In this document: piece after piece, positions 9,086 to 61,712 of the stretch | Position numbering within the stretch: the stretch's first letter is position 1 | How the letters are laid out: each line of letters opens with the position of its first letter | Origin: Escherichia coli | GTDB lineage: Bacteria > Pseudomonadota > Gammaproteobacteria > Enterobacterales > Enterobacteriaceae | Reading direction: 5' to 3' (one strand) | NCBI RefSeq assembly: GCF_017348835.2 | Contig: NZ_CP071375.1 | DNA: 64,000 bases | Translations under genes and position numbers: made by a program | The notes under the pieces: generated by a model | Database searches by the model: none | Told to the model about the DNA's origin: nothing | The model's input: only the letters and a program-made list of their open reading frames with translations

Positions 9086-9496
9086 ATGACCATAAAAGAA
9101 AAATTCTCACAAAAATATCCCCATGCTTCCTTTTGTACTTTTGGCGATTCAGCCGCGTTGGCCGATCACCTCGCAACGTTGATTGCGACTGGTGTTAAAA
9201 CAGCTTCCTGTGGTTCGCTGGCGGGATGTATTGAAGACAACGCATTTCCGATGATTGGTGAGTATAAGATTGTAGAAAATAGCCGTGGTGAGCCTGTATG
9301 TGTTATCAGAGTGATTGGCCTGCATTTACTGCGCTTTTCTGATGTCACCGCAGAGCTTGCCCGTAAGGAAGGTGAAGGTGACCTCAGTCTTGAATATTGG
9401 CGTAATGAACACCGTCGTTTTTTCCAGGCAGAAGGAAGCTATTCACCAGAAATGGACGTTATCTTTGAAGAATATGCCCTTATTGACGTTGTATAG
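9086..9496 (+). CDS. ASCH-domain (PUA-like) protein, about 136 aa
   Basis: ORF 9056..9496; the MTIKEKF start at 9086 is more plausible; ATLIATGVKTASCG resembles the ASCH GxKT core. Confidence 0.55.
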   Translation: MTIKEKFSQKYPHASFCTFGDSAALADHLATLIATGVKTASCGSLAGCIEDNAFPMIGEYKIVENSRGEPVCVIRVIGLHLLRFSDVTAELARKEGEGDLSLEYWRNEHRRFFQAEGSYSPEMDVIFEEYALIDVV

Positions 9497-9569
9497 ATAA
9501 CTATTTATCTACACGAAATAAGCTCACAAACATAAAATATCGCTAATTTTGTTTATTTTGCTGTTTTTT

Positions 9570-9588
9570 ACGTGATGAATGTCACACT
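9570..9588. promoter_or_regulatory. CRP-like half-site pair GTGA-N6-TCACA upstream of the ABC transporter
   Basis: Sequence acGTGAtgaatgTCACAct read directly; about 160 bp upstream of the binding-protein start codon. Confidence 0.35.
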
Positions 9589-9746
9589 TATTATTGCTGC
9601 CCGTTTTGTCCATATTTATAACCATATTTTTAATAGCTGCCTGAAATAGAGCTGTTTATTCTGCATAAAAATATTCGAAAATTCTTATTCTCTCCAGCGC
9701 GCTAATTTGGGCGAACACTTCCTGACTACCCTGCAATGAGGCTGAA

Positions 9747-10733
9747 ATGATGAATAAACGTTTTGTTATCAATATGGTGTCTTCGCTGTTATTAGGCGCT
9801 GCGCTAATTTCTGCGCCGCTCCAGGCAGCGGAAAAAGTCGTGGTGAATATTTCTAAAGTCGATGGTATGCCGTGGTTTAATCGCATGGGCGAAGGTGTGG
9901 TTGAGGCGGGTAAAGCCTTTGGTGTTAATGCCTCACAGGTGGGGCCTTCAAGTACTGATGCTCCGCAACAGGTTAAAATTATTGAGGATTTAATCGCCCG
10001 TAAGGTTAATGCAATTACTATCGTGCCAAACGATGCCAACGTGCTGGAACCGGTATTCAAAAAAGCGCGAGATGCCGGAATTGTGGTTCTGACCAACGAA
10101 TCCCCCGGTCAGCCAAGTGCTAACTGGGATATCGAAATCATTGATAACGAAAAATTTGCCGCTGAATATGTTGAGCATATGGCGAAACGCATGGGTGGCA
10201 AGGGCGGCTATGTGATTTACGTGGGTAGTTTGACCGTGCCGCAGCATAACTTATGGGCTGACTTGCTGGTGAAATACCAGAAAGAGCATTACCCGGATAT
10301 GCATGAAGTTACCCGCCGCATGCCGGTTGCCGAGAGTGTGGATGACTCACGTCGTACCACACTGGACCTGATGAAAACCTATCCTGACTTGAAAGCGGTT
10401 GTCTCCTTTGGTTCAAACGGTCCGATTGGCGCGGGACGTGCGGTGAAAGAGAAACGGGCGAAAAATAAAGTCGCAGTCTATGGCATGATGATCCCTTCAC
10501 AGGCGGCATCACTGATTAAAAGTGGTGATATCACCGAAGGGATTACTTACGATCCGGCCTCTGCAGGTTACGCACTCGCAGCCGTCGCCAGCACATTGCT
10601 GAAGGGTGAAGAGATCAAGCCTGGATTAGAAATGCAGAATCTGGGTAAGGCCGACGTAGATATGGATAAGCGAATTATCCGTTTCCATAAGGTATTACTG
10701 GTCAACAAAGACAATATCGACTCACTTTATTAA
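9747..10733 (+). CDS. periplasmic sugar-binding protein, LsrB/RbsB family (328 aa) with signal peptide
   Basis: Signal peptide MMNKRFVINMVSSLLLGAALISAPLQAAEK; C-terminal NKDNID motif shared with LsrB-type binding proteins. Confidence 0.85.
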   Translation: MMNKRFVINMVSSLLLGAALISAPLQAAEKVVVNISKVDGMPWFNRMGEGVVEAGKAFGVNASQVGPSSTDAPQQVKIIEDLIARKVNAITIVPNDANVLEPVFKKARDAGIVVLTNESPGQPSANWDIEIIDNEKFAAEYVEHMAKRMGGKGGYVIYVGSLTVPQHNLWADLLVKYQKEHYPDMHEVTRRMPVAESVDDSRRTTLDLMKTYPDLKAVVSFGSNGPIGAGRAVKEKRAKNKVAVYGMMIPSQAASLIKSGDITEGITYDPASAGYALAAVASTLLKGEEIKPGLEMQNLGKADVDMDKRIIRFHKVLLVNKDNIDSLY

Positions 10734-10781
10734 TCCATTTCTTCGGGGCGAAAGCCCCGATTCTTATTGCCAGGGGATGTT

Positions 10782-12266
10782 ATGGAAACCTTCCTTTCCC
10801 TTCGTCATATCAACAAAACGTTTCATGCCACGCGAGCGCTGCGCGATGTTTCTCTCGACTTTATGTCGGGTGAAGTGCACTGCCTTGCCGGGCAAAACGG
10901 CTGTGGTAAATCGACGTTGATTAAAATTATGTCCGGTGTTTATCGCCCGGATGAGGGAGCGGAAATTACGCTTGGTGGGAAAAACTGGTCAAAGCTGACA
11001 CCCGCCGCTTCGGTGGCGCAGGGGATTCAGGTGATTTATCAGGACCTCTCTTTATTTCCTAACCTGAGTGTCTGGGAGAATATCGCCGTGAATCACTATC
11101 ACCACGGTCTGTTTGTTAACCGCCGTCGTCTGCGTGAGGTGGCGCAGGCGGCAATGACCAGTATTAACGTCACATTGCCACTGGATACACTCGTTTCTGA
11201 GCTTTCAATTGCCCGCTGTCAGCTGGTGGCTATTTGCCGTGCACTGGCGCAGGACGCACGGTTGATCGTGATGGATGAACCAACCGCTTCGCTGACCCAT
11301 CAGGAAGTGCAAGGGTTATTACAGGTGGTGCATCAATTGCGTGAACGCGGGATCTGCGTGGTCTTCGTCAGTCATCGTCTGGAAGAAGTGATGGAAGTTT
11401 CCGAGCGTATTTCAGTGCTGAAAGATGGTGAGCTGGTCGGGACTTTTCCGGCTGCAGAGATGACCACAAAACAACTCGGTTTCCTGATGACCGGCCAGGA
11501 GTTTGAATATCAGGTGCGAGAGTTGTGGCAGGGAAAATCCAGCACCCCGGTGCTGGAGGTGCGTAATTTAAGTCGTCATGGGGAATATCTAAATATTAAC
11601 TTGCGGGTGGAAGCGGGCGAAGTGGTATCGATTGTTGGCCTGCTTGGTGCGGGGCGCACGGAATTATGTCTGAGTCTGTTTGGTATGACCCGACCGGATG
11701 CTGGCGAGATCCTCATCAACGGCCAGCCGGTTACACTGCATAGTAACCAGGACGCCATCCGCCACGGTATTGGTTATGTTTCGGAAGATCGCATGTCGCG
11801 CGGTTTGGTGATGGCGCAATCTATTGAAGACAACATCATTAGCACTGTTTTTCACAAGGTAAAAGATCGCTTCGGCTTTCTGAGTGAAACTAAAGTGCGT
11901 GACCTGGTGGACAGGCTAATCAAGGCATTGACCATCAAAGTCTCTGATCCTCATCTCCCGGTGAATACGCTTTCTGGTGGTAACGCGCAGCGAGTATCGA
12001 TCGCCAAATGGCTGGCGATTGGGCCACGACTGTTGATTCTCGATAGCCCGACAGTCGGTGTTGATATCGCCAACAAAGCAGGAATATACGGCATTATCAG
12101 CGATCTGGCGGCTCATGGCATTGCGGTATTGATGATCTGCGATGAAATTGAAGAAGCGTGGTATCAAAGCCACCGGATTTTGGTAATGCAAAAAGGTCAG
12201 ATCACCCATAGCTTCCTGCCTGACAGCAGTTCTCAGGCCAGGATTGCGGAGGTGGTAAATGGCTGA
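10782..12266 (+). CDS. sugar ABC transporter ATP-binding protein, duplicated ABC domains (about 494 aa)
   Basis: Two Walker A motifs (GQNGCGKST and GLLGAGRTE) and an ABC signature (LSGGNAQR); RbsA/LsrA-like architecture. Confidence 0.85.
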   Translation: METFLSLRHINKTFHATRALRDVSLDFMSGEVHCLAGQNGCGKSTLIKIMSGVYRPDEGAEITLGGKNWSKLTPAASVAQGIQVIYQDLSLFPNLSVWENIAVNHYHHGLFVNRRRLREVAQAAMTSINVTLPLDTLVSELSIARCQLVAICRALAQDARLIVMDEPTASLTHQEVQGLLQVVHQLRERGICVVFVSHRLEEVMEVSERISVLKDGELVGTFPAAEMTTKQLGFLMTGQEFEYQVRELWQGKSSTPVLEVRNLSRHGEYLNINLRVEAGEVVSIVGLLGAGRTELCLSLFGMTRPDAGEILINGQPVTLHSNQDAIRHGIGYVSEDRMSRGLVMAQSIEDNIISTVFHKVKDRFGFLSETKVRDLVDRLIKALTIKVSDPHLPVNTLSGGNAQRVSIAKWLAIGPRLLILDSPTVGVDIANKAGIYGIISDLAAHGIAVLMICDEIEEAWYQSHRILVMQKGQITHSFLPDSSSQARIAEVVNG

Positions 12267-13230
12267 ACTGAAAAAACGCCATGAATTCTGGCTGGCATTA
12301 CTGATTGTGGTGCTGTTTGTTGGCCTTGCCTGGCGCAGCGACGAGTTTCTGACATTCGGTAATTTGTACGATCTCGCCAATAACTATGCCATGTTGACTA
12401 TTCTCGCCTGTGGTTTGTTTGTGGTGTTGATTTCCGGTGGAATTGATATTTCGTTTCCAGCTATGACCATCATTGCGCAATACGGCATGGTGCTGTTGCT
12501 GCAAAAAATTGGTGGCAACTTCGCTGTCGCGTTTGCACTGGCGGGCTGCATCGGCATTTTACTTGGCTTAATTAACGCCTTACTGGTTAATCGCCTACGG
12601 GTGCCTTCTATCATCATCACTATCTCGACGCTGAATATTTTCTATGGCCTGCTGTTATGGTTGAGTAAAGGTGTGTGGCTGTACGACTTTCCGCCGTGGT
12701 TTGAGCAGGGGGTTATGTTGTTCAAGTACACCGATGCTGATGGCTATGACTATGGCCTTGGTCTGCCGCTGATCGCCATGATTACGGTGGTGCTGCTAAC
12801 AGCGTTTATCATGAATTTCACCAGTGTAGGGCGCAAAATTTATGCCCTTGGCGGGAACCGCGAATCAGCCAGTCGCATCGGCTTTAGCGTGCTGAAACTG
12901 CAACTTTTCGTCTATGGCTATATGGGATTGATGTCTGGCGCTGCGGGTGTAGTGCAGTCGTGGACGGTGATGACTGTCGCCCCCGATTCTCTTCTGGGTT
13001 ATGAGCTGACAGTACTGGCTGCGGTGGTGCTTGGCGGCACTAGTTTGCTCGGCGGGCACGGCACGTTAACCGGTACTTTGCTCGGCGTGGTGTTGTTGGC
13101 AGTGATGCAAAACGGGCTAAATTTATTGGGAGTCTCGTCTTACTGGCAAACATTGATCACCGGCATCATCATCGTTGCCAGCATTAGTGCCACGGCGTGG
13201 AGTCAGCATCAGAACCGGAGTCTGCTATGA
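12259..13230 (+). CDS. ABC transporter permease, RbsC-like (323 aa)
   Basis: Multi-TM hydrophobic ORF overlapping the ATPase stop by 8 bp. Confidence 0.8.
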   Translation: MAELKKRHEFWLALLIVVLFVGLAWRSDEFLTFGNLYDLANNYAMLTILACGLFVVLISGGIDISFPAMTIIAQYGMVLLLQKIGGNFAVAFALAGCIGILLGLINALLVNRLRVPSIIITISTLNIFYGLLLWLSKGVWLYDFPPWFEQGVMLFKYTDADGYDYGLGLPLIAMITVVLLTAFIMNFTSVGRKIYALGGNRESASRIGFSVLKLQLFVYGYMGLMSGAAGVVQSWTVMTVAPDSLLGYELTVLAAVVLGGTSLLGGHGTLTGTLLGVVLLAVMQNGLNLLGVSSYWQTLITGIIIVASISATAWSQHQNRSLL

Positions 13231-14183
13231 AAAAATCGTGGTGTAATAACGTTGAGTTTTACTTGATCGGCCTGCTGGTGCTAACTGTTGCCGCGTTCAG
13301 CATTACTATGCCGGAGATTTTCTGGTCGATAAGTAATTTCCAGTCCGTCGCTTCGCAAATGCCCGTGCTGGGCATTCTGGCGTTGGCTATGGCGGTGACC
13401 ATGCTTTGCGGTGGCATTAACTTGTCAATTATAGCCACTGCTAACGCCTGTTCACTGGTGATGGCGTGGGTGGCGACTCAGTATCCACCGGGTATTGCTA
13501 CGGTTGTCGCTACGTTACTGGCGGGCGCTGGCGCGGCGGTGATAATCGGTTTATGTAACGGCGTATTGATTGCTGGTATTCGAGTGTCGCCAATTCTTGC
13601 AACGCTTGGGATGATGACGTTGCTCAAAGGGATAAATATTCTGGTGACAGGTGGTAGCGCCATTGCCAATTATCCCTCATGGGTGCTGTGGTTGAATCAT
13701 GCGCAATGGTTCGGTATTCCGCTACCGATGTGGTTGTTTGCCGCAGTGGCACTGGGGCTGTGGATATTGCTGGAAAAAACGCCGCTCGGTAAAGCCATTT
13801 ACCTGATTGGGTCTAACGAACGAGCAACACTTTACTCCGGCATTAACACTCGTCGGGTGCTGATTTGGGTTTATGTCATTTCCGCCTTGCTTTGTGCGGT
13901 AGCGGCATTTTTGATGATGTCGAAACTCAACTCGGCTAAGGCCTCTTATGGCGAATCGTACTTGCTGGTGTCAATCCTCGCGGCAGTACTCGGCGGGGTT
14001 AATCCGGACGGCGGCAGCGGGCGGATAATTGGTATGGTGCTGGCGCTGTTTCTTCTGCAAATTATTGAAAGCGGCTTCAATATTCTCGGTATAAGCCCCT
14101 ACCTGACGATGGCCTTATGGGGAACGTTGCTGCTCTGTTTCATTCAGGCTCGCGGCATGTTGGGGCTGGATCGGGTGGTTTAA
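13227..14183 (+). CDS. ABC transporter permease, second subunit (about 318 aa)
   Basis: Multi-TM ORF; the MKKSW start forms an ATGA overlap with the preceding permease stop. Confidence 0.8.
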   Translation: MKKSWCNNVEFYLIGLLVLTVAAFSITMPEIFWSISNFQSVASQMPVLGILALAMAVTMLCGGINLSIIATANACSLVMAWVATQYPPGIATVVATLLAGAGAAVIIGLCNGVLIAGIRVSPILATLGMMTLLKGINILVTGGSAIANYPSWVLWLNHAQWFGIPLPMWLFAAVALGLWILLEKTPLGKAIYLIGSNERATLYSGINTRRVLIWVYVISALLCAVAAFLMMSKLNSAKASYGESYLLVSILAAVLGGVNPDGGSGRIIGMVLALFLLQIIESGFNILGISPYLTMALWGTLLLCFIQARGMLGLDRVV

Positions 14184-38600: not shown

Positions 38601-38670
38601 ATTCACCACCCTGAATTGACTCTCTTCCGGGCGCTATCATGCCATACCGCGAAAGGTTTTGCGCCATTCG
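38601..38670 (-). promoter_or_regulatory. lacI promoter (-35 GCGCAA, -10 CATGAT), embedded in the 3' end of the upstream regulator gene
   Basis: Reverse complement reads GAATGGCGCAAAACCTTTCGCGGTATGGCATGATAGCGCCCGGAAGAGAGTCAATTCAGGGTGGTGAAT, the classical lacI promoter sequence. Confidence 0.85.
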
Positions 38671-39590
38671 GCGGGGCTGACGCCGAAGTGAGATTTAAAA
38701 TGCTGACGCCAGGTCACAGGTGAGAGAAAACCCACCTCAGCCGCTATCCGCTCCACGGGCAACTGACTGGATCCCAACAGTTCCTGGCTACGGCGTAAGC
38801 GTTCAGTAATGAGCCATTCGGCGATACTCGAACCGGTCGCTTTCATAAAATGGCGAGTTAATGTGCGGCGACTCATCATTACTCGCTGCGCCAGCGAGTC
38901 GAGATCATGCTGTTGCGCAATGTTTTGCCGCAGGTAATCCAGCAGGAGATTAATGCGTTCATCAAGGGTATTTTTCGGCACTGGTTGCTCAATAAACTGC
39001 GCCTGACCGCCAGTGCGATATGGCGGTACGACCATCCGTCGGGCAATATGGTTAGCATAGTCGCTGCCAAAATGTTGCCGAACAATATACAAACAGCAAT
39101 CCAGCGCCGCGGCAGTACCGGCAGAGGTAATAATGCCGTCATCGTCTACGTACAACGCGTTAATATCCAGATGTGTTTGTGGAAAACGTGCCTGAAATTC
39201 ACGCTCGAACTCCCAGTGCGTGGCGGCACGCTTATTTTTCAGTAAACCTGCATAGCCGAGCACAAACGTGCCCAGGCAAAGCCCGACAATCTGTGCGCCG
39301 TTATCCCGTGCGGTCGTTAAGGCTTCCAGCAGTTTTTGTGGCGGTTTTTGTGTAATGGTTCCCCAGTAAGGAATTATCACAATATCTGCCTGGATGACTG
39401 CGGTATAGTCATGGGTGGCGGTTACGGAAAACCCATCGGCAGAGTCCACGTTTCCCGGCTTTTCAGCGCAGATAATTACGTGAAAGTGTTTTTTCTCCGC
39501 CATTTTTTCGCTAAATACGATAAACGGTACGGAAAGGTGAAAAGGACTAAAACCGGCAACGGCGATAATGGCAACAGTTAGCGGGCGCAT
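38637..39590 (-). CDS. DJ-1/PfpI-domain plus AraC-type HTH transcriptional regulator (GlxA/FtrA-like), 317 aa
   Basis: N-terminal DJ-1-like domain with the conserved Cys nucleophile elbow (QIVGLCLGTFVL); C-terminal AraC HTH (RRTLTRHF, SPAEWRKTF). Confidence 0.8.
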   Translation of the reverse strand: MRPLTVAIIAVAGFSPFHLSVPFIVFSEKMAEKKHFHVIICAEKPGNVDSADGFSVTATHDYTAVIQADIVIIPYWGTITQKPPQKLLEALTTARDNGAQIVGLCLGTFVLGYAGLLKNKRAATHWEFEREFQARFPQTHLDINALYVDDDGIITSAGTAAALDCCLYIVRQHFGSDYANHIARRMVVPPYRTGGQAQFIEQPVPKNTLDERINLLLDYLRQNIAQQHDLDSLAQRVMMSRRTLTRHFMKATGSSIAEWLITERLRRSQELLGSSQLPVERIAAEVGFLSPVTWRQHFKSHFGVSPAEWRKTFRGMA

Positions 39591-39609
39591 AACACTCTTT
39601 ATCTCCGAA

Positions 39610-40398
39610 TTAGAATGTCAACGTTTCACCATCTTCTGGTACGTTCACAAATTCGATAATTTGATTATCTCTGGCGTATTCCTTGAGCGCATCACGCGTC
39701 AGCAAACAGTGGTTTACGGCCTCCATATGTGTCGCGACAATTTGCGCTTCTGGCAGGGTAAAATGTGTTTTGAGAATATCTTCTGCTCCCATAATTATCG
39801 CGCCATGCCCCAGAACATGCGCAAATCCGGCATTCAACACAACCACTTCTGGTTGGAAAGTTAGCATTGTAGCCTCGACGTCGTCACGCCAGAGGGTATC
39901 GCCACCCAGATAGAGCGTTTTCTCTGTCGGGTGCTGGAAAACAACGCCGCAGGCTGCGCCTAAACGCTTCGCCATAGCCGGGTCGGCATAGGTGCGATCG
40001 GAGCCGTGCTGCCCTGTCGTTTTATGCAGAGTAATATCGCCAAATTTAGTCTCGTCGGTAAGTACGGTAAGATGCGTAAATCCTTGTTTATTCAGTGATT
40101 CAGCATCTTGCTCATTTTGCACATAAATCAGTTTATCTTTAGGGACGACGCGGGAGGCTGTTTCGTCCCAGTGATCTTCATGCAAATGGGTCACGATTAG
40201 GGCGTCAACGTTGAGTAACGTTGTTAAATCGCACGGTAATTCTACCGTTGGATTGCGGATTTCTGCGCGTGCCGTTCCGGCAAAACCCGGATAACTTCCT
40301 TTAGGCGCGAGTAACGGGTCGATAAGAAATGTTTTGCCAGCGTATTGGATAATTTGGGTGGCATTACGAATTTGCGTAATTTTCATGATTTGCTCCAC
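39610..40398 (-). CDS. metallo-beta-lactamase-fold hydrolase (262 aa)
   Basis: HxHxDH motif (THLHEDHWDE) plus downstream His/Asp ligands; 19 bp upstream of the regulator on the same strand. Confidence 0.8.
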   Translation of the reverse strand: MEQIMKITQIRNATQIIQYAGKTFLIDPLLAPKGSYPGFAGTARAEIRNPTVELPCDLTTLLNVDALIVTHLHEDHWDETASRVVPKDKLIYVQNEQDAESLNKQGFTHLTVLTDETKFGDITLHKTTGQHGSDRTYADPAMAKRLGAACGVVFQHPTEKTLYLGGDTLWRDDVEATMLTFQPEVVVLNAGFAHVLGHGAIIMGAEDILKTHFTLPEAQIVATHMEAVNHCLLTRDALKEYARDNQIIEFVNVPEDGETLTF

Positions 40399-51075: not shown

Positions 51076-52215
<1,140 letters not shown>

Positions 52216-52219
52216 TCAG

Positions 52220-52495
52220 CTATTTAAGATAGGCACGAACCAGTTCAATAGTGTCGTCAACGGATTGGCTGACTTCGCGGCTGTAGCAGTCATTTCGGTC
52301 AAACGTTTCCCGGATATGGCTTTCAAGCACTTCTGCCATCAGCCCATTAGCCGCGCCCCGAACGGCAGCGATCTGTTGGAGTATGGCACGGCATTCGGCA
52401 TCACTCTCCAGCGACCGTTCCAGAGCATCAATCTGCCCTCGAATACGACGAACTCGAGTAAGGACCTTTTTCTTCTCTTCCGGAGTACTGGGCAT
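52220..52495 (-). CDS. frmR: formaldehyde-responsive repressor (CsoR/RcnR family, 91 aa)
   Basis: ORF 52220..52516; start [30 protein letters not shown] at 52495. Confidence 0.92.
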
Positions 52496-52520
52496 TTCGC
52501 ACCTCATCATCTGCATGCAA

Positions 52521-52571
52521 TATACTATAGGGGGGTATGCTATATGTCAATGCATACCCCCCTATAGTATA
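52521..52571. promoter_or_regulatory. 51-bp palindrome (20-bp perfect arms TATACTATAGGGGGGTATGC / GCATACCCCCCTATAGTATA) upstream of frmR; probable FrmR operator
   Basis: Read directly; 26 bp upstream of the frmR start; G6/C6 tracts typical of CsoR/RcnR-family operators. Confidence 0.75.
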
Positions 52572-52654
52572 TAACACTGGAGAATAATTGTTGTCCGAAG
52601 CCTAACCAGGTGAACGGTCCCTCAAGACAGATGGGGACCGTTTATGTGCTATTT

Positions 52655-53713
52655 TTATGCCGCATCCGCTAAAACAAACATCCCGTAAGGATGGATTTCG
52701 AGGTAATAGTGCTCACCAATATCGGGCTGTAAACGGGTGGCGTTTACTTGTAATAGAATCTCCTGTCCATGCCACTCTACGGTCACTTCGTACTGCGGCC
52801 CCATGTAGGCGACATGGCGAATAACACAACGCTGACTCTCTTCGCCGTGATTGCTTAAGGTGATGGCTTCCGGGCGAACGCCGACGGTGCCGCTACCTTG
52901 CGCCGGGAAATGCGCCGCGCGCGGCAGGCGATAACCGTAGATATCGACATACTCTTCGCTAAAGTTCGCCGGGAACAGGTTGGCGTCGCCCATAAAACTT
53001 GCCATAAATCGGGAGGCTGGCTGACGATAGAGATCCTGCGGTGAGCCAATTTGCATGATGTGACCTTTATTCATCACCAGCACAGTGTCGGACACCGCGA
53101 AAGCTTCACTTTGATCGTGAGTGACGTAGAGCGACGTGATATTAAACTGCTTTTGCAGCTCGCGGATCTTATCGCGCATACTGCGGCGCAGGTTGGCATC
53201 GAGGTTACTTAACGGCTCATCAAACAGCAGCACCTTTGGCTTGAGGATCAACGCGCGGGCCAGTGCCACTCGCTGTTGCTGACCACCGGAAATCTGATCG
53301 ACATAGCGGTCCTCGAAGCCTTCCAGATCCACCATTGCCAGCGCCTCCTTCACCCGCTGTTTCACTTCGCTACGCGAGACGCCAAGCATCTTCAGCCCGT
53401 AGCCAACGTTTTCACCCAGCGACATATGCGGGAACAGAGCGTATGACTGAAACACCATGCAGATATCGCGCTGTTGAATGGAACGATGCGTGACATCTTC
53501 GCCATCAATAAAAATTTGCCCTTCGCTCGGTTTTTCCAGCCCGGCAACCAGACGCAAAATGGTGGTTTTGCCACAGCCGGAAGGACCGAGCAGCGTCACC
53601 ATTTGCCCTTGTGGAATGGTGAGATTGATATTGTCGATAACCGTATTACTGCCGAATCGTTTAGTGACGTTGCGCAGTTCAACAAAATTTTTCTGACTCA
53701 TATTGCGCTCCAT
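52655..53713 (-). CDS. afuC: ABC transporter ATP-binding protein (FbpC/AfuC-like, 352 aa)
   Basis: Walker [10 protein letters not shown], signature ISGGQQQRV, Walker B LLFDEPLS. Confidence 0.85.
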
Positions 53714-55791
53714 TACGCCTGGTTTTTGGCTTTAGAACGGGAGATACGAGCTTCTCCGATCAGCCAGTCAAAGAGGAAAATAATCGCCAGCATCACCACG
53801 ATCAGAATCGAACCATAGGCGATGGCTACGCCATATTCGCCGTCTTCAACGCGGTTAAGAATGTAGGCGGTTGCCACGCGGGTGTCCGGCGTGACGAGAA
53901 AGACGATGGCGCTGACCGTCGTGATGGCCCGCACAAAGCTGTAGATCAGGGCCGAGAGAATGGCCGGACGCAGCAGCGGCAGTAAAATGTGGGTTATGGT
54001 TCGCAAGGAACCCGCGCGCAGGCTGAGTGAGGCTTCATCCAGCGATTTGTCGATCTGCCCCAGACCCGCAATCCCGGCGCGAATACCCACCGGAACGTTA
54101 CGCATCACCATCGAGATAATCACAATTGCCGCCGTTCCGGTGAGATAAACCGGAGCGCTGTTAAAGGCAAGAATATACGAAACGCCCGCCACCGTACCCG
54201 GTACGGCAAAGCACAGCATGGTGGTGAACTCGATGGTCTTTTTGCCTTTGAATTGTTGACGCACCACCACCCAGGCGATGAGCAGGCCAAAGATAGCGGT
54301 AATGGGAGCGGCAATCCCGGCGTAGAGCAGGGTATCCAGCAGTGAAGGCCACGCGCCGTCGCTCATTCCCTGACCAAATAGCTTGATAAAGTTATCCAGC
54401 GTCAGGGTGTAGTCCACGCCCCAGTTCACCGTGAAGCTGCCGTAGAAAATGCTGCCGTAGAGCAGGGCGTTAAAGGCAATCCATATCGCAAGTATGGCGA
54501 CCACGCTCCACACCAGGGTGACCGGTAGCGGCTGGACGTCGCCACGGTAGGATTTGCCGGAAACCGTGACGTAAGAGCGTTTACCAATCCACATATACTG
54601 GATGCAGAACACCAGCAGCGAGAACAGCAGCAGGAAAGCGCCAAGGGTGCTGGCGGCCTGATAATCCAGCTGCGAGCCGGTAATATAGAAGTAAATTTGC
54701 GTCGCCAGTACGTCGAAGTTACCGCCAAGTACCAGCGGGTTACTGAAATCAGCCAGTGACTGTACCACGACGATTAAAAAGGCATTGGCGAGTGCGGGCT
54801 TCAACAACGGCACAAACACGCCGTTAAAGGTTTGCCAGCGGCTGGCGCGCAGGGTGTAGGAGGCCTCTTCCAGCGAGGGATGAATGGTTTTAATGGCCCC
54901 GTCGAGGATCATAAATGCCATTGGCGTGAATGCCAGAACCTGTGCCAGCCAGATCCCGGTAAAACCGTACAGCCAGTTGGTGTTGGTCAGCCCAAACCAC
55001 TCCACCATAAATTCCGTAACATAGCCGGAGCGCCCCATCATGAGCGTCACGCCTAAGCCGACCACAAACGGTGGCGTAACGATGGGCAAAATGGAAAAGA
55101 TGCGACCAATAATGGCGCTGCGTTTAGCGATGCGCGTGGTATAAATCGCCAGCACCAGGCCGAAGAAAGTACAGCCTATCCCCACCGCTATCGACAAGAC
55201 GATAGAGTTGACGATCACCTGAACAATATGTGCCTGCGAGAGCACGGTCATAAACGCCAGCGGGGCGAACTCTCCCGCGTCGTTGGTGAACATCGGGATA
55301 AAAATGGCGATGCTCGGCCAGACGATAAAAATGCCAATCAGCGCCACAATCGCAATCAGTGAGCCGATCACGAAGCGGTCGCCGCCCAGCCATTCGAGGC
55401 GGGTTAAGGCCAGCGTCATAATCGCGCCTAGTTCAACAAACAGCACGATGGCGGCGTAGCCTAAACCGCGTCCAGCCACGGTGGCGCTGATGACGATAAA
55501 CGCCATACAGAGCAATGCCCAGCTGGCATCAAAATAATGACGACTACGCTGTTCGCGTGTGGCCTCACGAAACGGGCGAACCAGCAACAGACTCGGTAAC
55601 AAATACCACAGCCAGCTGATATTAAAATGCGACCAGCCATAAGCCTCGAGGATCTCATCACTCGTGGACTCCAGCAGGCCATAATCGAGGCTCCAGCTCG
55701 GCAACAGTATAAATGCCAGCCAGCCCAGCAAAACCCAAAGGAAAATCGCATCCCGCTTTTTCACGGGATGGAGTGCAAGTGTCTGTGACAT
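53713..55791 (-). CDS. afuB: ABC transporter permease, fused two-domain (FbpB/AfuB-like, 692 aa)
   Basis: 692 aa polytopic ORF with two permease domains; start overlaps afuC. Confidence 0.85.
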
Positions 55792-55859
55792 AGCAGTTCC
55801 GGTATGGTTGGCCGGGGCAGGCGTTTGTGCTGCACCCGGTAAATACGCCTAATGCGGGT

Positions 55860-56891
55860 TTATTTACCCATCTTCACTTCGCTGACCCATTTATTAATCA
55901 ATGCCTTACGAACATCCGTGGAACCATATTTATCCATGTCGTAGTTGATTAATTTCAGGTCGTCGAGCTTCAGCGAATTTGGCGACGTTTCGGCGGTGGT
56001 ATTGGTCAGGATCTGATAAGACTTCCCTTTCTTCCACGCCAGTTCCTGAGCTTCTTTTGATAATACCCAGTCCACAAACAGTTTGGCGTTGTCGAGGTTG
56101 CGCGCGCCTTTCAGAATGCTGACGCCGCCAATTTCGTAGCCCGTACCTTCACACGGGGAAATCAACTCCAGCGGCGCGCCCTGTTCTTTTTCCAGCGAGT
56201 AGTCATGCAGGAAGCCAATACCAATCGCCGTTTCGCCACGGGCGGCGTTACGTGCCGGGGCTATGCCTGATTTGGTGTACTGAGAGACGTTGGCGTTCAG
56301 TTGTTTTAGATAATCAAAGGCCTGATCTTCCCCCCACAGCTGCGCAAAAGTAGCCAGGGCGGTGTAGGCAGTACCGGAACTTTGCGGATCGGCAATTTGA
56401 ATTTCGCCTTTATATTCCGGTTTGGTGAGATCTTTCCAGCACTTCGGCACCGGCAGGTTTTTCTCTTTCAGACGATCGGTGTTTACGCCAAAACCGAGGA
56501 TCCCCACATAAACGGCAGAGGACAGATTCCCTTTCACTTTTGCCGGATCGCGGAATTTCTCCATGATCTGCTCAAGGTTAGGGGATTTATACGCCTGTAG
56601 CAGGCCCATCTCGCCAGCCTGCGATTGCGGGTCTAAAGTGCCGCCGTACCAGACGTCAGCCTGGGGGTTTTTCTTTTCAGCATCGACTTTTGCCAGGGTG
56701 CTTCCGGAACCGTTGCGGATAAACGAGGTTTTTACATCATATTTCTCGCCAAACGCTTTGGTTTCGGCCTCACACATTTCATTGGTGGCGCTGCAATAGA
56801 CCACCAGCCGGCCTTTTGCCTGCGCGGCACCCGTTAAAGTCGCCAGCGCAACGGCAGAAGCAATCAGAGTAGAGGTAAAGGTCATTTTCAT
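55860..56891 (-). CDS. afuA: periplasmic substrate-binding protein (AfuA-like, about 343 aa) with signal peptide
   Basis: ORF 55860..57218 runs antisense through the upstream gene; real start MKMTFTSTLIASAVALATLTGAAQA at 56891, overlapping the upstream gene stop by 4 bp. Confidence 0.8.
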   Translation of the reverse strand: MKMTFTSTLIASAVALATLTGAAQAKGRLVVYCSATNEMCEAETKAFGEKYDVKTSFIRNGSGSTLAKVDAEKKNPQADVWYGGTLDPQSQAGEMGLLQAYKSPNLEQIMEKFRDPAKVKGNLSSAVYVGILGFGVNTDRLKEKNLPVPKCWKDLTKPEYKGEIQIADPQSSGTAYTALATFAQLWGEDQAFDYLKQLNANVSQYTKSGIAPARNAARGETAIGIGFLHDYSLEKEQGAPLELISPCEGTGYEIGGVSILKGARNLDNAKLFVDWVLSKEAQELAWKKGKSYQILTNTTAETSPNSLKLDDLKLINYDMDKYGSTDVRKALINKWVSEVKMGK

Positions 56892-58204
56892 TGTTTTATC
56901 CTTCGAGCGTGAGTGGTGGTGATGCCCGCCATCAGTAACGGCATCAGCAGTAAACCCATAAGTACTGCGGCGACCGAGAGTAAACTGAACATTCCCGGCC
57001 AGCCGTAGCGTTCGATGACCAGCGACAGCGGCCAGCCTGCCAGCGCCGCGCCAAGGTAAGCGAACAGGCCGAGAAATCCGGTGATTGAACCCGCCGCAGC
57101 TTTGTGCCCACACTCCACCGCCGCAAGTCCAATCAGCATTTGTGGGCCAAAGACGAAAAAGCCCACGGTAAAAAAGCACACTGCCAGCAGAGCGTAGTGA
57201 TGAACCGGTGCCAGCCACAGTGCGGCGACTGACACCATCAATCCCAACGTGAACAGCAAAATCATTGGCGCTCGTTGCCCGCTAAACAGCAAATCCGATC
57301 CCCATCCGGCAAATAACGCGCCGAGTAAGCCGCCCACTTCAAACAGCATTACCGTGGCGTTGGCGCTGAGCAGGTTGACACCGTGGCTTTCCGTCAGCCA
57401 GATATTGCCCCAGTCGTTAAGCGCAATCCGGATCACATAAACCAGTACATAAGAGACGCCCAGTATCCAGATCAGCGGATTTTGCAGCATGGTGGTGCGC
57501 AACATTTGCCACAGCCCCATCGGCGGACTTTGTTGTTCCTGACGTAACTCCAGCGGATCGTGACGCCAGTGACCAACTGTCGGTAATCCCTCTTCCTGGG
57601 GCGTGCCTTTGAGTTGTAGTGTTAACCAGATCCCTAATGCCATGCTGATTATCCCCGGTGTCAGCATCGCGGCCTGCCAGCCCCACCAGTGGGCGGCAAA
57701 GGCGCTAATCAGCGGAATAATCGCTCCGCCAATGTTGATCGACATATTCCAGCAGCCCCACCAGAAACCGCGCTCATTGCGTGAGTACCAGTGGGTCAGC
57801 AAGCGGGCACACGGTGGCCATCCCCAACCCTGAAAAAAACCGTTCAGTGTCCAGACCACAAGCAGAAGCGTAAGTGATTCGCCAAAGGCAAACACCACGT
57901 TCAATAACCCGGTGGCGAACAAGCCAACGCCCATAAAACCGCGTTGTCCGTGGCTGTCATGCCACAGTCCGGCGGTAAATTTCGACAATCCGTAGCTGAG
58001 ATAAAACAGCGAACCCAGCAGGCCAATGTCGCCTTTATCCAGTCCGAGGTCGGTTTGTAGCGCCGGAAGGACGTAATTCACGCTTTTTCGCGTCAGATAA
58101 AATGCGGCGTAGCCAATAATCATGCACATCAGCAATCGCGGACGTAATGTCCGGTAGCATTGATTAATTTCTCTCGCTGAACGCGCGTGCATGGTTGTCT
58201 CCAT
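56888..58204 (-). CDS. MFS sugar-phosphate sensor/transporter, UhpC-like (438 aa)
   Basis: High similarity by eye to UhpC (YLTRKS, NGFFQGWGWPPCARLLTHWYSRNERG, DWGNIWLTESHGV). Confidence 0.85.
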   Translation of the reverse strand: METTMHARSAREINQCYRTLRPRLLMCMIIGYAAFYLTRKSVNYVLPALQTDLGLDKGDIGLLGSLFYLSYGLSKFTAGLWHDSHGQRGFMGVGLFATGLLNVVFAFGESLTLLLVVWTLNGFFQGWGWPPCARLLTHWYSRNERGFWWGCWNMSINIGGAIIPLISAFAAHWWGWQAAMLTPGIISMALGIWLTLQLKGTPQEEGLPTVGHWRHDPLELRQEQQSPPMGLWQMLRTTMLQNPLIWILGVSYVLVYVIRIALNDWGNIWLTESHGVNLLSANATVMLFEVGGLLGALFAGWGSDLLFSGQRAPMILLFTLGLMVSVAALWLAPVHHYALLAVCFFTVGFFVFGPQMLIGLAAVECGHKAAAGSITGFLGLFAYLGAALAGWPLSLVIERYGWPGMFSLLSVAAVLMGLLLMPLLMAGITTTHARRIKQ

Positions 58205-58276
58205 GTTGCTGACTATATGAAAATGAAAGTGAAAGGGGATGAGAGAAAATCCGGGATACCTAAGACTTTTTCCTGG

Positions 58277-59818
58277 TTATCCGGCGATTTGTTGCAAAAA
58301 TGTGGGCAAGTTAACAATTACCCGCGTGCCGTGCTGTTTTTCGAGCGTTAAGTCGCCGCCCAGGGCGCTGACGCGCTCACGCATCCCCTGAATGCCAAAT
58401 CCGGCCATTTTCCCGCTGGCGATCCCCACACCGTTGTCGCTGACTTCCAGATGCAATACCTCTCCCTGCTGGCGCAGGATAATCGTCACTTCGCTGGCTT
58501 CGGCGTGTTTACAGATGTTATTAAGCAACTCCTGCAATAACCGATACAAGGTAAAGCGCACCGTTTCGTTTTCTGGTGTGGAGTTCAGTTGATAGGCAAA
58601 CTGGCAATGAATGCCGCGTTCACTAAAGGCAAATTCATTAATCAGATGCAACAACGCTTCGCGAAATGTCAGTTCATCAAGCGCGGGAGGCCGCAACTGG
58701 CGCAGCAATTGGCGGGTGGAAAGATGAATGCGGCGGGCGAGCTCATTGATTTGGCTGGCTGCGGATTGAATTTGCGCCGGATCACGCGCCCGCTTCACCA
58801 GTTGCGACTGGATCTGAATGGCGGTGATGTTCTGACCGATTTCGTCGTGCAGCTCTCGCGCCAGGTTTTTTCGCGTGTCCTCCTCGGTGTGGATCAGCTT
58901 TTCCGCCAATGCCCGCCGCGCTGCCAGCTCGGCCTCCAGCCGTTGTCGGTAATGGTGCAGGTTTAGCGCCAGATGTTGCTGGCGACTGATGGCAATGCCC
59001 AGGCCAATTCCCAGCAAGGCCTGGGTCGCGAGGAAAATCTCCAGCTCCACCAGGTTACTAAAGCCCACGCCAATCTGGCGGGCGATGGTGATCATCATGC
59101 TGCCCAAAAGCCCGGAGAGTACGCCACCTTGCCAGCCAAATTTCCACGCCATCACCACATTGGGCAAAAAGACCACGATCAACAGCAGACGTTCAATTTC
59201 AGGTGACAGCACCATCTGAGTGCCGATACCAATAATAAAAAACAGGCTACACCAGATGATTAAAGAGGTACGCAAGGGGGGATTATGCGTATCGAGTCCC
59301 AGGAGCTGGTAGCGATGCTGCTGGCGCAGAAACTCAAAGATAAGATAGACAAACGGCGTCAGTAATACGCCGCCGGTAAATGAGGTCAAACCCGGCAGCA
59401 TTATTGGGCCTGACATAAAAGGGGAGAGCAGGGCGGTATTCAACAATGAAGCTGCCGTGACAGTGGCTAACAGCAACGTCAGACGCTGCCAGTAAAGTGG
59501 AAAACGGTGCCAGAAGTTTTGCGCAAGGAGGGCAGGAAACAGGCTAATAACCGGCGTTGCCAGCATGAGATAACCGTTCAATAGCTGTTCACTATGGAGC
59601 CAGAACATCATCAGCAAAGGGGGGAGCACCAACGCAGGCCAGTAGCGGCGAGAGAGCAAAATAACAAGGGCGAGATAAACTCCCTGCGGGAGAAACAACA
59701 CCGCCTGTTGACCGTTATTGGTCAGATAAAAGCTGAGCGTCCACAGCATCAGCCAGCCGGTTCCCCAGGCCAGCACAATAAACAGCGAAATCACCCAATG
59801 ACGAAGATTGCGCGACAT
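58277..59818 (-). CDS. membrane sensor histidine kinase, UhpB-like (513 aa)
   Basis: Multi-TM N-terminus; H-box ELHDEIGQ; C-terminal HATPase motifs (DNGVGI, GFGIQGMRER). Confidence 0.85.
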   Translation of the reverse strand: MSRNLRHWVISLFIVLAWGTGWLMLWTLSFYLTNNGQQAVLFLPQGVYLALVILLSRRYWPALVLPPLLMMFWLHSEQLLNGYLMLATPVISLFPALLAQNFWHRFPLYWQRLTLLLATVTAASLLNTALLSPFMSGPIMLPGLTSFTGGVLLTPFVYLIFEFLRQQHRYQLLGLDTHNPPLRTSLIIWCSLFFIIGIGTQMVLSPEIERLLLIVVFLPNVVMAWKFGWQGGVLSGLLGSMMITIARQIGVGFSNLVELEIFLATQALLGIGLGIAISRQQHLALNLHHYRQRLEAELAARRALAEKLIHTEEDTRKNLARELHDEIGQNITAIQIQSQLVKRARDPAQIQSAASQINELARRIHLSTRQLLRQLRPPALDELTFREALLHLINEFAFSERGIHCQFAYQLNSTPENETVRFTLYRLLQELLNNICKHAEASEVTIILRQQGEVLHLEVSDNGVGIASGKMAGFGIQGMRERVSALGGDLTLEKQHGTRVIVNLPTFLQQIAG

Positions 59819-60447
59819 TAATGCCCCGCCAGCAGATGGTGGTCGAGCGCAAAATGTACCAGTTCAATGGTGCTATGGCAGTTCAGTTTTCCCAGCACAT
59901 TGGCGCGATGCACATGTACCGTTTTATGACTGAGTTCGAGTTTAAAGGCGATCTCTTTAACGCTGTCTCCTTTGACCAGTAAATCAAACACTTCACGTTC
60001 TCGTGGGGTGAGAATTTCCAGCGCCTGGGCGGGTTGCCCGCCGCCGCGTAAAGCCCGAATCGCATCGGCACAGAGATAATGCCCGCCCAGCCCGACCGAG
60101 CGCACCGCCTGCACTAACTCTTCCGGCCCACAGCGTTTGGTTAAATACCCGCTGGCACCGGCATCCAGCGCGCTTTGCACAAAGGTTGGCGCGTCATAAA
60201 TGCTAAGAATAATGGCGCGAAATTGCGGTTTTTGTGCACGCAGGCGCTTAAGCAAACTGAGGCCGTTTTCGTCCGGCATGGCAATATCAATGACGGCAAC
60301 ATTGACGTCATCACGGATTAATGCCGACCATGCCTGCGCGGCACTACTGTACTGACCAATGACCTCCAGATCGTCTTCCAGAGAGAGTAATTGTGCGAAG
60401 CCAGAGCGCACCACCACATGGTCATCCACCAGCACTACCCGAATCAT
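59818..60447 (-). CDS. response regulator, NarL/FixJ family, UhpA-like (209 aa)
   Basis: Receiver domain (VVLVDDH...IDIAMPD) and LuxR-type HTH (EIAFKLELSHKTVHVHRANVLGKL). Confidence 0.85.
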   Translation of the reverse strand: MIRVVLVDDHVVVRSGFAQLLSLEDDLEVIGQYSSAAQAWSALIRDDVNVAVIDIAMPDENGLSLLKRLRAQKPQFRAIILSIYDAPTFVQSALDAGASGYLTKRCGPEELVQAVRSVGLGGHYLCADAIRALRGGGQPAQALEILTPREREVFDLLVKGDSVKEIAFKLELSHKTVHVHRANVLGKLNCHSTIELVHFALDHHLLAGH

Positions 60448-60749
60448 ACTTTTCTTCTCTTATTATCTAATTCTCCTATCATGCATCACGGCGCGGCGCT
60501 GGCAATCAACCAGCGACAGATATGGAATGGATGTAACAAAATGGCAATAATTTGCCGGAGCGCGCACATCTTATCTGTCTTGTGAACCGGCGGGATACGT
60601 TCGCCAAAACCGCAAAATGTGCAAACTCGCTAACCATTGCCGATTTTTTTCTAAAAACGCTTTGTTCTTAACAAGACCTTTTAATTCCTTTATCAAACTG
60701 ACCCGCAACGAAATACTGCTCCCATAACAAGACAGGGGAGCAGACAATC

Positions 60750-61712
60750 ATGGCAATTTCATCGCGTAACACTCTTCTTGCCGCACTGGCATTCATCGCT
60801 TTTCAGGCGCAGGCGGTGAACGTCACCGTGGCGTATCAAACCTCAGCCGAACCGGCGAAAGTGGCTCAGGCCGACAACACCTTTGATAAAGAAAGCGGAG
60901 CAACCGTGGACTGGCGTAAGTTTGACAGCGGAGCCAGCATCGTGCGGGCGCTGGCTTCAGGCGACGTGCAAATCGGCAACCTCGGTTCCAGCCCGTTAGC
61001 GGTTGCAGCCAGCCAACAGGTGCCGATTGAAGTCTTCTTGCTGGCGTCAAAACTGGGTAACTCCGAAGCGCTGGTGGTAAAGAAAACTATCAGCAAACCG
61101 GAAGATCTGATTGGCAAACGCATCGCCGTACCGTTTATCTCCACCACCCACTACAGCCTGCTGGCGGCGCTGAAACACTGGGGCATTAAACCCGGGCAAG
61201 TGGAGATTGTGAACCTGCAGCCGCCCGCGATTATCGCTGCCTGGCAGCGGGGAGATATTGATGGTGCTTATGTCTGGGCACCGGCGGTTAACGCCCTGGA
61301 AAAAGACGGCAAGGTGTTGACCGATTCTGAACAGGTCGGGCAGTGGGGCGCGCCAACGCTGGACGTTTGGGTGGTGCGCAAAGATTTTGCCGAGAAACAT
61401 CCTGAGGTCGTGAAAGCGTTCGCTAAAAGCGCCATCGATGCTCAGCAACCGTACATTGCTAACCCAGACGTGTGGCTGAAACAGCCGGAAAACATCAGCA
61501 AACTGGCGCGTTTAAGCGGCGTGCCTGAAGGTGACGTTCCGGGGCTGGTGAAGGGGAATACCTATCTGACGCCGCAGCAACAAACGGCAGAACTGACCGG
61601 ACCGGTGAACAAAGCGATCATCGACACCGCGCAGTTTTTGAAAGAGCAGGGCAAGGTCCCGGCTGTAGCGAATGATTACAGCCAGTACGTTACCTCGCGC
61701 TTCGTGCAATAA
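60750..61712 (+). CDS. tauA: taurine ABC transporter periplasmic binding protein
   Basis: 320 aa with signal peptide. Confidence 0.9.
   Translation: MAISSRNTLLAALAFIAFQAQAVNVTVAYQTSAEPAKVAQADNTFDKESGATVDWRKFDSGASIVRALASGDVQIGNLGSSPLAVAASQQVPIEVFLLASKLGNSEALVVKKTISKPEDLIGKRIAVPFISTTHYSLLAALKHWGIKPGQVEIVNLQPPAIIAAWQRGDIDGAYVWAPAVNALEKDGKVLTDSEQVGQWGAPTLDVWVVRKDFAEKHPEVVKAFAKSAIDAQQPYIANPDVWLKQPENISKLARLSGVPEGDVPGLVKGNTYLTPQQQTAELTGPVNKAIIDTAQFLKEQGKVPAVANDYSQYVTSRFVQ

Follow-up and report, generated by a model that had tools for sequence, protein, structure and literature searches.

Among 64,000 nucleotides of Escherichia coli DNA (assembly GCF_017348835.2, contig NZ_CP071375.1; hereafter the window), we analyzed a six-gene cluster at 52655-60447 on the minus strand, which joins genes resembling the hexose-phosphate sensing system UhpABC to the genes of an ATP-binding cassette (ABC) importer, AfuABC. 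The reading we favor, and regard as quite likely overall, is that the two halves form one Uhp-type sensing and AfuABC import module, and that sensor and importer are switched on together from an activated promoter, P2, in the spacer between the kinase gene and the sensor gene. We identify the locus as E. coli O-island 20 (OI-20; Z0458-Z0463): positions 52000-61500 are 99.0% identical over 9.5 kb to the O157:H7 strain Sakai, where these six genes (ECs_0413-0418) likewise lie between frmR and tauA, at an identical chromosomal site and with the same order and junctions, although the best match of the window is a pig isolate rather than O157:H7. Both the locus and this kind of system were thus already known. 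Our analysis adds a synteny survey, the anatomy of a promoter, and a sharpened disagreement about the signal.

The original prediction, made from the letters of the window alone, had placed six co-oriented minus-strand genes between frmR and tauA, and the open reading frames and the annotation agree. In the direction of transcription, the cluster encodes a NarL/FixJ-type response regulator paralogous to UhpA (FusR, Z0463/ECs_0418; 59818-60447, 209 amino acids), a histidine kinase with MASE1 and HisKA_3 domains paralogous to UhpB (FusK, Z0462/ECs_0417; 58277-59818, 513 amino acids), a UhpC-like sensor of the major facilitator superfamily (MFS; Z0461/ECs_0416; 56888-58192), the periplasmic sugar-phosphate binding protein AfuA (55860-56891), the fused two-domain permease AfuB (53713-55791, 692 amino acids; "ABC transporter permease" in RefSeq) and the ATPase AfuC (52655-53701). 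Two of these starts were corrected after the RefSeq annotation of a 100% identical genome, that of pig strain PE164. The MFS gene starts at 58192, the second ATG, after GGAG, with an alternative upstream ATG at 58204 in the longest frame; afuC starts at 53701, again after GGAG, where the longest frame would begin at 53713. Because the MFS start is at 58192, the spacer between kinase and sensor genes is 84 bp and not 72 bp, compared with 9 bp in K-12. The regulator stop and kinase ATG overlap by 1 nt (TAATG), as uhpA and uhpB do in K-12. The predicted 4-bp overlap of afuA with the sensor stop was read directly in the sequence: sensor TGA and afuA ATG share an ATGA (...AAA CAA TGA, with ATG AAA ATG ACC within) that is preceded by AAGGA.

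This arrangement is strongly conserved. A scan of 100,044 species genomes gave 438 stretches encoding an AfuA relative, and the best 80 of the 438, which were kept, cover about 28 named enterobacterial genera. All 73 loci with complete sequence have the order regulator-kinase-MFS-afuA-afuB-afuC, and none of the other 7, which are cut off by sequence ends, shows a different neighbor. The same six-gene order is found in three Vibrionaceae genera (Vibrio metoecus/cholerae-type, Photobacterium profundum and Grimontia) and in a Photorhabdus locus fetched separately, and hosts of the module include Pectobacterium, Brenneria, Erwinia, Rahnella and Buttiauxella as well as vibrios. In contrast to the window locus, a Pasteurellaceae locus from Gallibacterium anatis has afuABC without Uhp-like genes upstream. 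Sensor and transporter halves are therefore separable, yet they travel together in enterics and vibrios. In this Gallibacterium locus (L086), a class B acid phosphatase gene lies directly after afuABC (12411-13118), pairing the importer with a phosphatase.

The kinase-sensor spacer measures 81-135 bp in 75 of 78 loci, and the sensor-afuA junction, an overlap of 4 bp in 23 loci and of 1 bp in 9, does not exceed 60 bp in 75 of the 78. We aligned 76 distinct kinase-sensor spacers, having excluded L012 (a 278-bp spacer), L074 (a truncated kinase match) and L078 (a kinase frame that runs on), and scored conservation by the majority base against a baseline of 0.66 at four-fold degenerate sites of the adjacent coding sequence, a figure that comes from 13 sites only. 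Promoter positions assume a transcription start about 7 nt after the -10 element, near 58205.

On this scale, a succession of minus-strand elements stands out. Just after the kinase stop lies a UhpA-box-like palindrome, CCAGGAAAAAGTCTTAG (58260-58276; conservation 0.92; centered at about -63), the sole exact match in the 64-kb window. Its ancestral form reads CYAGGAA-N3-TTCCTRG, and the palindrome is perfect in Buttiauxella, Erwinia, Pantoea, Vibrio (CTAGGAAATATTCCTAG) and Photobacterium (CTAGGAATTTTTCCTAG). It is followed by the motif TCTCATCC (58237-58244; conservation 0.985) at about -39 to -32, where uhpT has its weak UhpA region, by a -10 element, TATAGT (58212-58217; conservation 0.90), which has the form TAnAnT in all genera and lacks a good -35, and by a Shine-Dalgarno sequence, GGAG (58199-58202; conservation 0.93), before the ATG at 58192. 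The distance from palindrome center to -10 is 51 bp in both E. coli and Vibrio, and Photobacterium has its palindrome, TGTCTCAT and TACTAT in the same order. Upstream, within the 3' end of the kinase gene, is a CRP-like site, TGTTAACTTGCCCACA (58301-58316; centered at about -103.5), which CRP would be expected to bind. This 16-mer, of the general form TGTTAAC(C/T)TGCCCACA, occupies the last kinase codons in 81 of 83 loci, and its center is 40.5 bp from that of the palindrome in all 79 loci in which both elements were matched. Its third-codon positions are 0.98 conserved, as opposed to 0.60 in the preceding 60 nt; therefore, the constraint appears to act on the DNA itself.

The K-12 uhpT promoter has the same layout, with cGTGATGCATCTCACc at -103.5, CTAAGAAATTTTCCAGG centered at -64 and at the same distance from its -10, and no -35. 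CTAAGAAATTTTCCAGG is identical to the Vibrio palindrome at 13 of 17 positions, and TCTCA stands 22 nt before the -10 both in the spacer and in K-12 uhpT, where the -10 is TACAAT. Work on uhpT in the Kadner laboratory reportedly placed CAP action at -103.5, strong UhpA binding at -80 to -50, and weak binding at -50 to -32. From this agreement, seen here as sequence pattern and conservation, we infer that the spacer holds a complete uhpT-type promoter, P2, with a putative site for the regulator, and P2 is fairly probably an activated promoter. A consensus sigma-70 scan found the promoter P1 ahead of the regulator gene and did not find P2; this outcome would be expected of an activator-dependent promoter without a -35, and is thus neutral with regard to P2. 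A role of the palindrome as terminator or RNA hairpin was also considered and rejected, since it lacks a T-tract, folds weakly in its E. coli version (-11.7 kcal/mol, z = -1.5), and has a right arm that is degenerate while the left is kept. The original prediction had the transporter regulated from further upstream, and proposed looking for UhpA-box-like repeats in the kinase-sensor spacer and ahead of the regulator gene. The first point is supported by the sensor-afuA junctions, which in 75 of the 78 loci lie between -4 and +60 bp, together with the conserved UhpA-box-like promoter, and the spacer does hold such a site; ahead of the regulator gene, a search of the window with up to 2 mismatches gave no second copy of the palindrome that would indicate autoregulation, its three matches being no more than chance.

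A few spacers in the cluster deviate in length. In Raoultella planticola (L012, 8421-8700), the kinase-sensor spacer is 278 bp, compared with about 85 bp elsewhere, and the afuA-afuB spacer is about 140 bp in Citrobacter amalonaticus (L003, 11029-11172) and in loci L008 and L046, compared with about 70 bp elsewhere. These enlarged spacers may be due to insertions of small repeat elements. The afuA-afuB spacer of the window shows no significant RNA structure (z = -0.38).

The three proteins encoded around P2 resemble the Uhp sensor, as had been proposed. Pairwise identity to K-12 is 48% for regulator and UhpA, 35% over the full length for kinase and UhpB, and 53% for the MFS protein and UhpC. 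Families were assigned with NCBIfam models at their curated or equivalog cut-offs. The MFS protein passes the UhpC model NF008661 (586 bits, cut-off 564) and scores only 213 bits with UhpT. UhpA and UhpB are the top matches of the regulator and kinase, at scores below the equivalog cut-offs, and by these measures the two are paralogs, not orthologs, of UhpA and UhpB, whose canonical uhpABCT locus lies elsewhere on the K-12 chromosome. Functional residues are retained: the regulator has the recognition-helix stretch KTVHVHRAN identical to that of UhpA, and the kinase keeps the H-box LHDEIGQ of K-12 UhpB. In UhpT, R46 and R275 are the phosphate-binding arginines, as established for UhpT and GlpT; they correspond to R35 and R255 of the MFS protein, and are invariant across UhpC and UhpT. 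Like UhpC, the MFS protein lacks the D388/K391 pair of UhpT.

The importer half is very likely a sugar-phosphate importer, as the original prediction had held against an iron transporter. The binding protein matches Actinobacillus pleuropneumoniae AfuA (4R72-75; E = 1.5e-169, residues 25-343, ~80% identical by eye), which was solved with glucose-6-phosphate (G6P), fructose-6-phosphate (F6P) and sedoheptulose-7-phosphate (S7P), and it matches 8X1A (E = 1.7e-173, residues 25-343, ~79% identical by eye), whose sequence shares 99% identity with a protein cluster of Vibrio metoecus/cholerae type. H229, D230 and E253 of the precursor correspond to AfuA H205, D206 and E229, the sugar-coordinating motif defined by Sit et al. 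(2015; PMC4546632), and the surrounding FLHDY and GYE line up with 4R72 at every residue. For most NCBIfam models, AfuB gives two matched permease stretches, and AfuC passes the FbpC/AfuC model NF008513 with 699 bits (cut-off 496). The A. pleuropneumoniae and Pasteurellaceae AfuABC share with this locus the fused permease and the ATPase as well as the sugar-binding residues. With proteins of A. pleuropneumoniae and Citrobacter rodentium, isothermal titration calorimetry and rescue of a uhpT deletion identified AfuABC as an importer of G6P, F6P and S7P, and in C. rodentium this sugar-phosphate transport system was required for colonization and transmission (Sit et al., 2015; PMC4546632).

That the transporter is instead a ferric-iron system of the Fbp/Afu type, as its original and current database names have it ("ferric ABC transporter ATP-binding protein", "periplasmic-iron-binding protein"), finds some footing in the distant homology of the binding protein to FbpA (E about 1e-11). 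In Haemophilus influenzae FbpA (hFbpA), Fe3+ is held by His9, Glu57, Tyr195 and Tyr196. We took this protein as reference, its sequence having been checked as identical to 1D9V/1MRP. The four ligands align with T36, G84, L228 and H229 of the binding protein, all of them replaced, and the tyrosine and histidine ligands named beforehand as a sign of iron binding are not present. Because all four ligands are absent, the binding protein is, by its residues, not an FbpA-type iron binder. Together with the ~80% identity to an AfuA crystallized with sugar phosphates, the retained sugar-binding residues, and the transport results of Sit et al. (2015; PMC4546632), who doubted the iron specificity of the original uptake complementation, this makes an iron transporter extremely improbable.

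Compared with the canonical E. coli uhpABC-uhpT system, the locus has the same three families of sensor proteins and, at P2, the same promoter layout. The two differ in the transporter, which is the inorganic phosphate-linked antiporter UhpT there and a binding-protein-dependent ABC importer here, and in the place of the regulated promoter, which follows the sensor gene uhpC there and precedes the sensor gene here. The island has no uhpT-like gene, and the target of the promoter is the sensor gene with afuABC. [quoted passage not shown] The Vibrio system has the same six-gene order and the palindrome at the end of the kinase gene, 51 bp before a -10-like hexamer; it differs from the window locus in a 112-bp gap between sensor gene and afuA, where the latter has the 4-bp overlap, and in sequence, the MFS sensor being 51% and the binding protein (8X1A) about 79% identical. 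Induction by hexose-6-phosphate in V. cholerae reportedly needs the UhpA homologue VCA0682, and VCA0685-0687 are reportedly described as an operon.

In the mechanism we propose, the cluster would comprise two transcription units, with P1 driving regulator and kinase and P2 driving sensor and afuABC as one transcript, in which translation of afuA would be coupled to that of the sensor through the ATGA overlap. The MFS receptor would bind external hexose phosphate, upon which the kinase would most likely phosphorylate the regulator, and phosphorylated regulator together with CRP would activate P2. The regulated promoter would lie one gene earlier than in canonical Uhp, so that the sensor would be induced together with the transporter, creating positive feedback on the sensor, and the transporter would be a high-affinity, ATP-driven ABC system instead of a phosphate antiporter. 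We lean towards hexose phosphate as the signal in E. coli. The effects published for FusKR in enterohemorrhagic E. coli (EHEC), namely the response to fucose and repression of ler, fuc and z0461, would in this mechanism be a lineage-specific overlay on the ancestral circuit.

An alternative is that afuABC has its own promoter in the 3' end of the sensor gene and is separately controlled, for example by CRP, Pho or Fur, in which case the ATGA overlap would be without regulatory meaning. The Pasteurellaceae afuABC, which lacks Uhp genes, indicates that the transporter can be expressed alone, the reported VCA0685-0687 operon of V. cholerae speaks for it, and a further promoter would fit into the sensor-afuA gaps of 111-168 bp that Vibrio, Photobacterium, Yersinia and Ewingella have. 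However, such gaps are rare among the 78 enterobacterial loci, where they are confined to Ewingella and two Yersinia loci (111-160 bp) and the genes overlap or abut in 32. Furthermore, the Vibrio sensor-afuA spacer has no conserved palindrome while the one upstream of the Vibrio sensor gene is kept, and the consensus scan found no minus-strand promoter-like site in the 3' end of the sensor gene. We consider a separate afuABC promoter very unlikely.

The literature on OI-20 has handled FusKR and Z0461, as a fucose system, and AfuABC, as a sugar-phosphate system, in separate stories. Sit et al. (2015; PMC4546632) noted that EHEC afuABC lies on OI-20 with the "fucose-sensing" two-component system FusKR. 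Our literature search found no paper naming both "fusR" and "afuABC", and in it FusK and UhpB were named together only by Sit et al., without a connection between them. The supplement of an EDL933 transcriptome study, in which Z0459 is afuB, names Z0461, Z0462 and Z0463 UhpC, UhpB and UhpA, and reports all four as up-regulated in bovine intestinal contents. Published work has also described repression of fusKR by QseB and QseF.

Read as a complete account, the published EHEC model holds that FusK directly senses L-fucose, that FusR is a repressor, that Z0461 is a fucose importer and that afuABC is an independent neighbor. Its experimental basis, as relayed in later articles, is that purified FusK responds to L-fucose and autophosphorylates with it, that FusR binds the ler promoter and represses z0461 along with ler and the fuc genes, and that fucose import is aided by z0461 (Pacheco 2012, per PMC11644481, PMC4810492 and PMC6199705), and a 2026 study found fusKR-dependent repression of the enterocyte effacement locus (LEE) by fucose freed from 2'-fucosyllactose (PMC12976359). 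The comparative evidence points elsewhere. The MFS protein scores above the UhpC cut-off and has retained the phosphate-binding arginines, its gene is joined by an ATGA overlap to a sugar-phosphate importer, a promoter that has its site at -63 and a CRP-like site at -103.5 is laid out for activation and not for repression, and the Vibrio counterpart takes up hexose-6-phosphate. LEE control is not the common function of the module, because the six genes are kept together in plant-, insect- and water-associated genera and in vibrios, and fucose sensing with LEE control cannot, on this distribution, be its general function. To our knowledge, none of these plant-, insect- and water-associated genera carries the LEE. 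One review further states that FusKR is present in EHEC O157:H7, acquired systems of such kind occurring only in few hypervirulent serotypes, and another that it possibly came from Enterococcus faecalis (PMC11644481, PMC4810492). Neither the confinement nor this origin holds when set against the genomes, because 518 of the 5,426 complete E. coli genomes carry the full module and the Citrobacter copies share 83-98% protein identity. As an account of the whole system, the fucose model seems unlikely to us.

Several observations nevertheless weigh against the P2-activated hexose-phosphate module. The results with purified FusK, reportedly obtained with the kinase alone, the repression exerted by FusR and the role ascribed to z0461 in fucose import all do so, and repression of z0461 by FusR runs counter to activation at P2. 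In the sequence, the palindrome has a degenerate right arm in E. coli, Citrobacter and Klebsiella and a pentamer spacing of 7 bp compared with 5 bp in the K-12 CCAGG/CCTGG repeat, and the left half of the CRP-like site is TGTTA, not the consensus TGTGA. The regulator and kinase fall short of the equivalog cut-offs of UhpA (193 bits, cut-off 258) and UhpB (380 bits, cut-off 408), and the wide sensor-afuA gaps of the vibrios, Yersinia and Ewingella belong here as well. The two views, fucose and hexose phosphate, may both be partly right. In its strongest form, our proposal would make FusKR/Z0461, often cited as a fucose sensor specific to EHEC, primarily a hexose-phosphate sensor, a UhpABC paralog that switches on its own receptor gene and AfuABC from a CRP-assisted UhpA-type promoter, with the fucose and LEE effects being indirect or a recent add-on; we regard this as possible, if rather doubtful. 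In addition, two Uhp-type systems in one cell may cross-regulate uhpT and afuABC, because the recognition helix of the regulator is identical to that of UhpA. Separately, we observed that the FusR-bound ler motif AAGAGAATAATAACATTTTAAGGTGGTTG (PMC11644481) contains GAGAATAAT, which weakly resembles the ancestral palindrome in its left arm plus spacer, AGGAATAAT, a likeness that may be due to chance.

The module is horizontally mobile. Homology of the window to the empty frmR-tauA site of strain R10 stops at 52587 and resumes at 60612, delimiting an inserted island of about 8.0 kb (52588-60611). Carriers are not O157:H7 alone and include O145, O15:H18 ST69, and pig, horse and chicken isolates, with allelic classes of around 99%, 97%, 94% and 92.5% identity. 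The bovine strain ZYB39 has, at another chromosomal site, a copy (L089, 4001-13676) that aligns with 52619-60541 at 97.3% identity. One side of this copy adjoins a tyrosine integrase and tRNA-Sec (selC); its other neighbors are a phosphoethanolamine transferase and a degraded integrase. Such a copy at a selC/integrase site argues that integrative islands carry the module from place to place.

K-12 has other genes at the frmR-tauA site, which the original prediction had given as yaiO, insertion sequence (IS) elements and yaiP/yaiS. We found yaiO, yaiX split by IS2A, yaiP, ykiC and yaiS, in agreement with it. A remnant of a second Afu module is present in the cryptic prophage CP4-6 of K-12 MG1655 (277756-279162; L095, 5757-7163), where an intact afuC accompanies an afuB pseudogene cut by IS1B, and is 85.5% identical to positions 52655-54061 of the window. 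In about 450 genomes, and on some plasmids, this fragment alone is present.

At the two ends of the cluster, further minus-strand features were recorded. P1, found in the consensus scan, is sigma-70-like (TTGCCA-16-CATGAT, 60478-60505), and its ATTGCC and GCATnAT are kept ahead of the regulator gene even in genera that could not be aligned further upstream. Upstream of P1, an element TTTTGTTACATCCATTCCATA (60521-60541) is conserved in an alignment of 75 regulator-upstream regions and lies at the extreme edge of the segment common with the selC copy; in Citrobacter, Enterobacter and Atlantibacter, it is a direct repeat, GTTACAT-N2-GTTACAT. In Vibrio metoecus (L084, 4197-4220), the regulator gene is preceded by a perfect 10-4-10 palindrome, GCGATTGATTAGACAATCAATCGC, that has no enterobacterial counterpart. 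On the 3' side of afuC, a GC-rich hairpin (52613-52642), most of whose -18.7 kcal/mol comes from the stem GGUCCCC...GGGACC (z = -1.6), is a possible operon end, with weak support and without a T-tract. Scanned against Rfam, 52000-61000 yielded no match close to a gathering score.

Elsewhere in the window, a long near-perfect inverted repeat, TATACTATAGGGGGGTATGC ... GCATACCCCCCTATAGTATA (52520-52572), spans the frmR promoter including its TTGACA/TAGTAT site. All E. coli types compared have this repeat, which is presumably the FrmR operator. Between yahJ and yahK (about 9086-14183) lie an autoinducer-2-type sugar ABC transporter, consisting of a binding protein, an ATPase and two permeases, and a gene with an ASCH domain. 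Between mhpR and lacI (about 38637-40386) are an MBL-fold hydrolase and a GlxA-family regulator, which are also present in O157:H7 Sakai. K-12 presumably lacks both blocks.

As a discovery, the locus is ordinary, since the island, the two-component system, the transporter and the V. cholerae design have all been published; its value lies in a correction and in a testable link. The comparative data indicate that "FusKR" is not confined to O157:H7 and would be one half of a conserved module for sugar-phosphate sensing and import. With a uhpT-like promoter in the spacer, the choice between G6P and fucose as signal, and the activation of afuABC, become directly testable. These questions bear on EHEC and Citrobacter models of gut colonization and on the therapies that are being designed around fucose-FusKR signaling.

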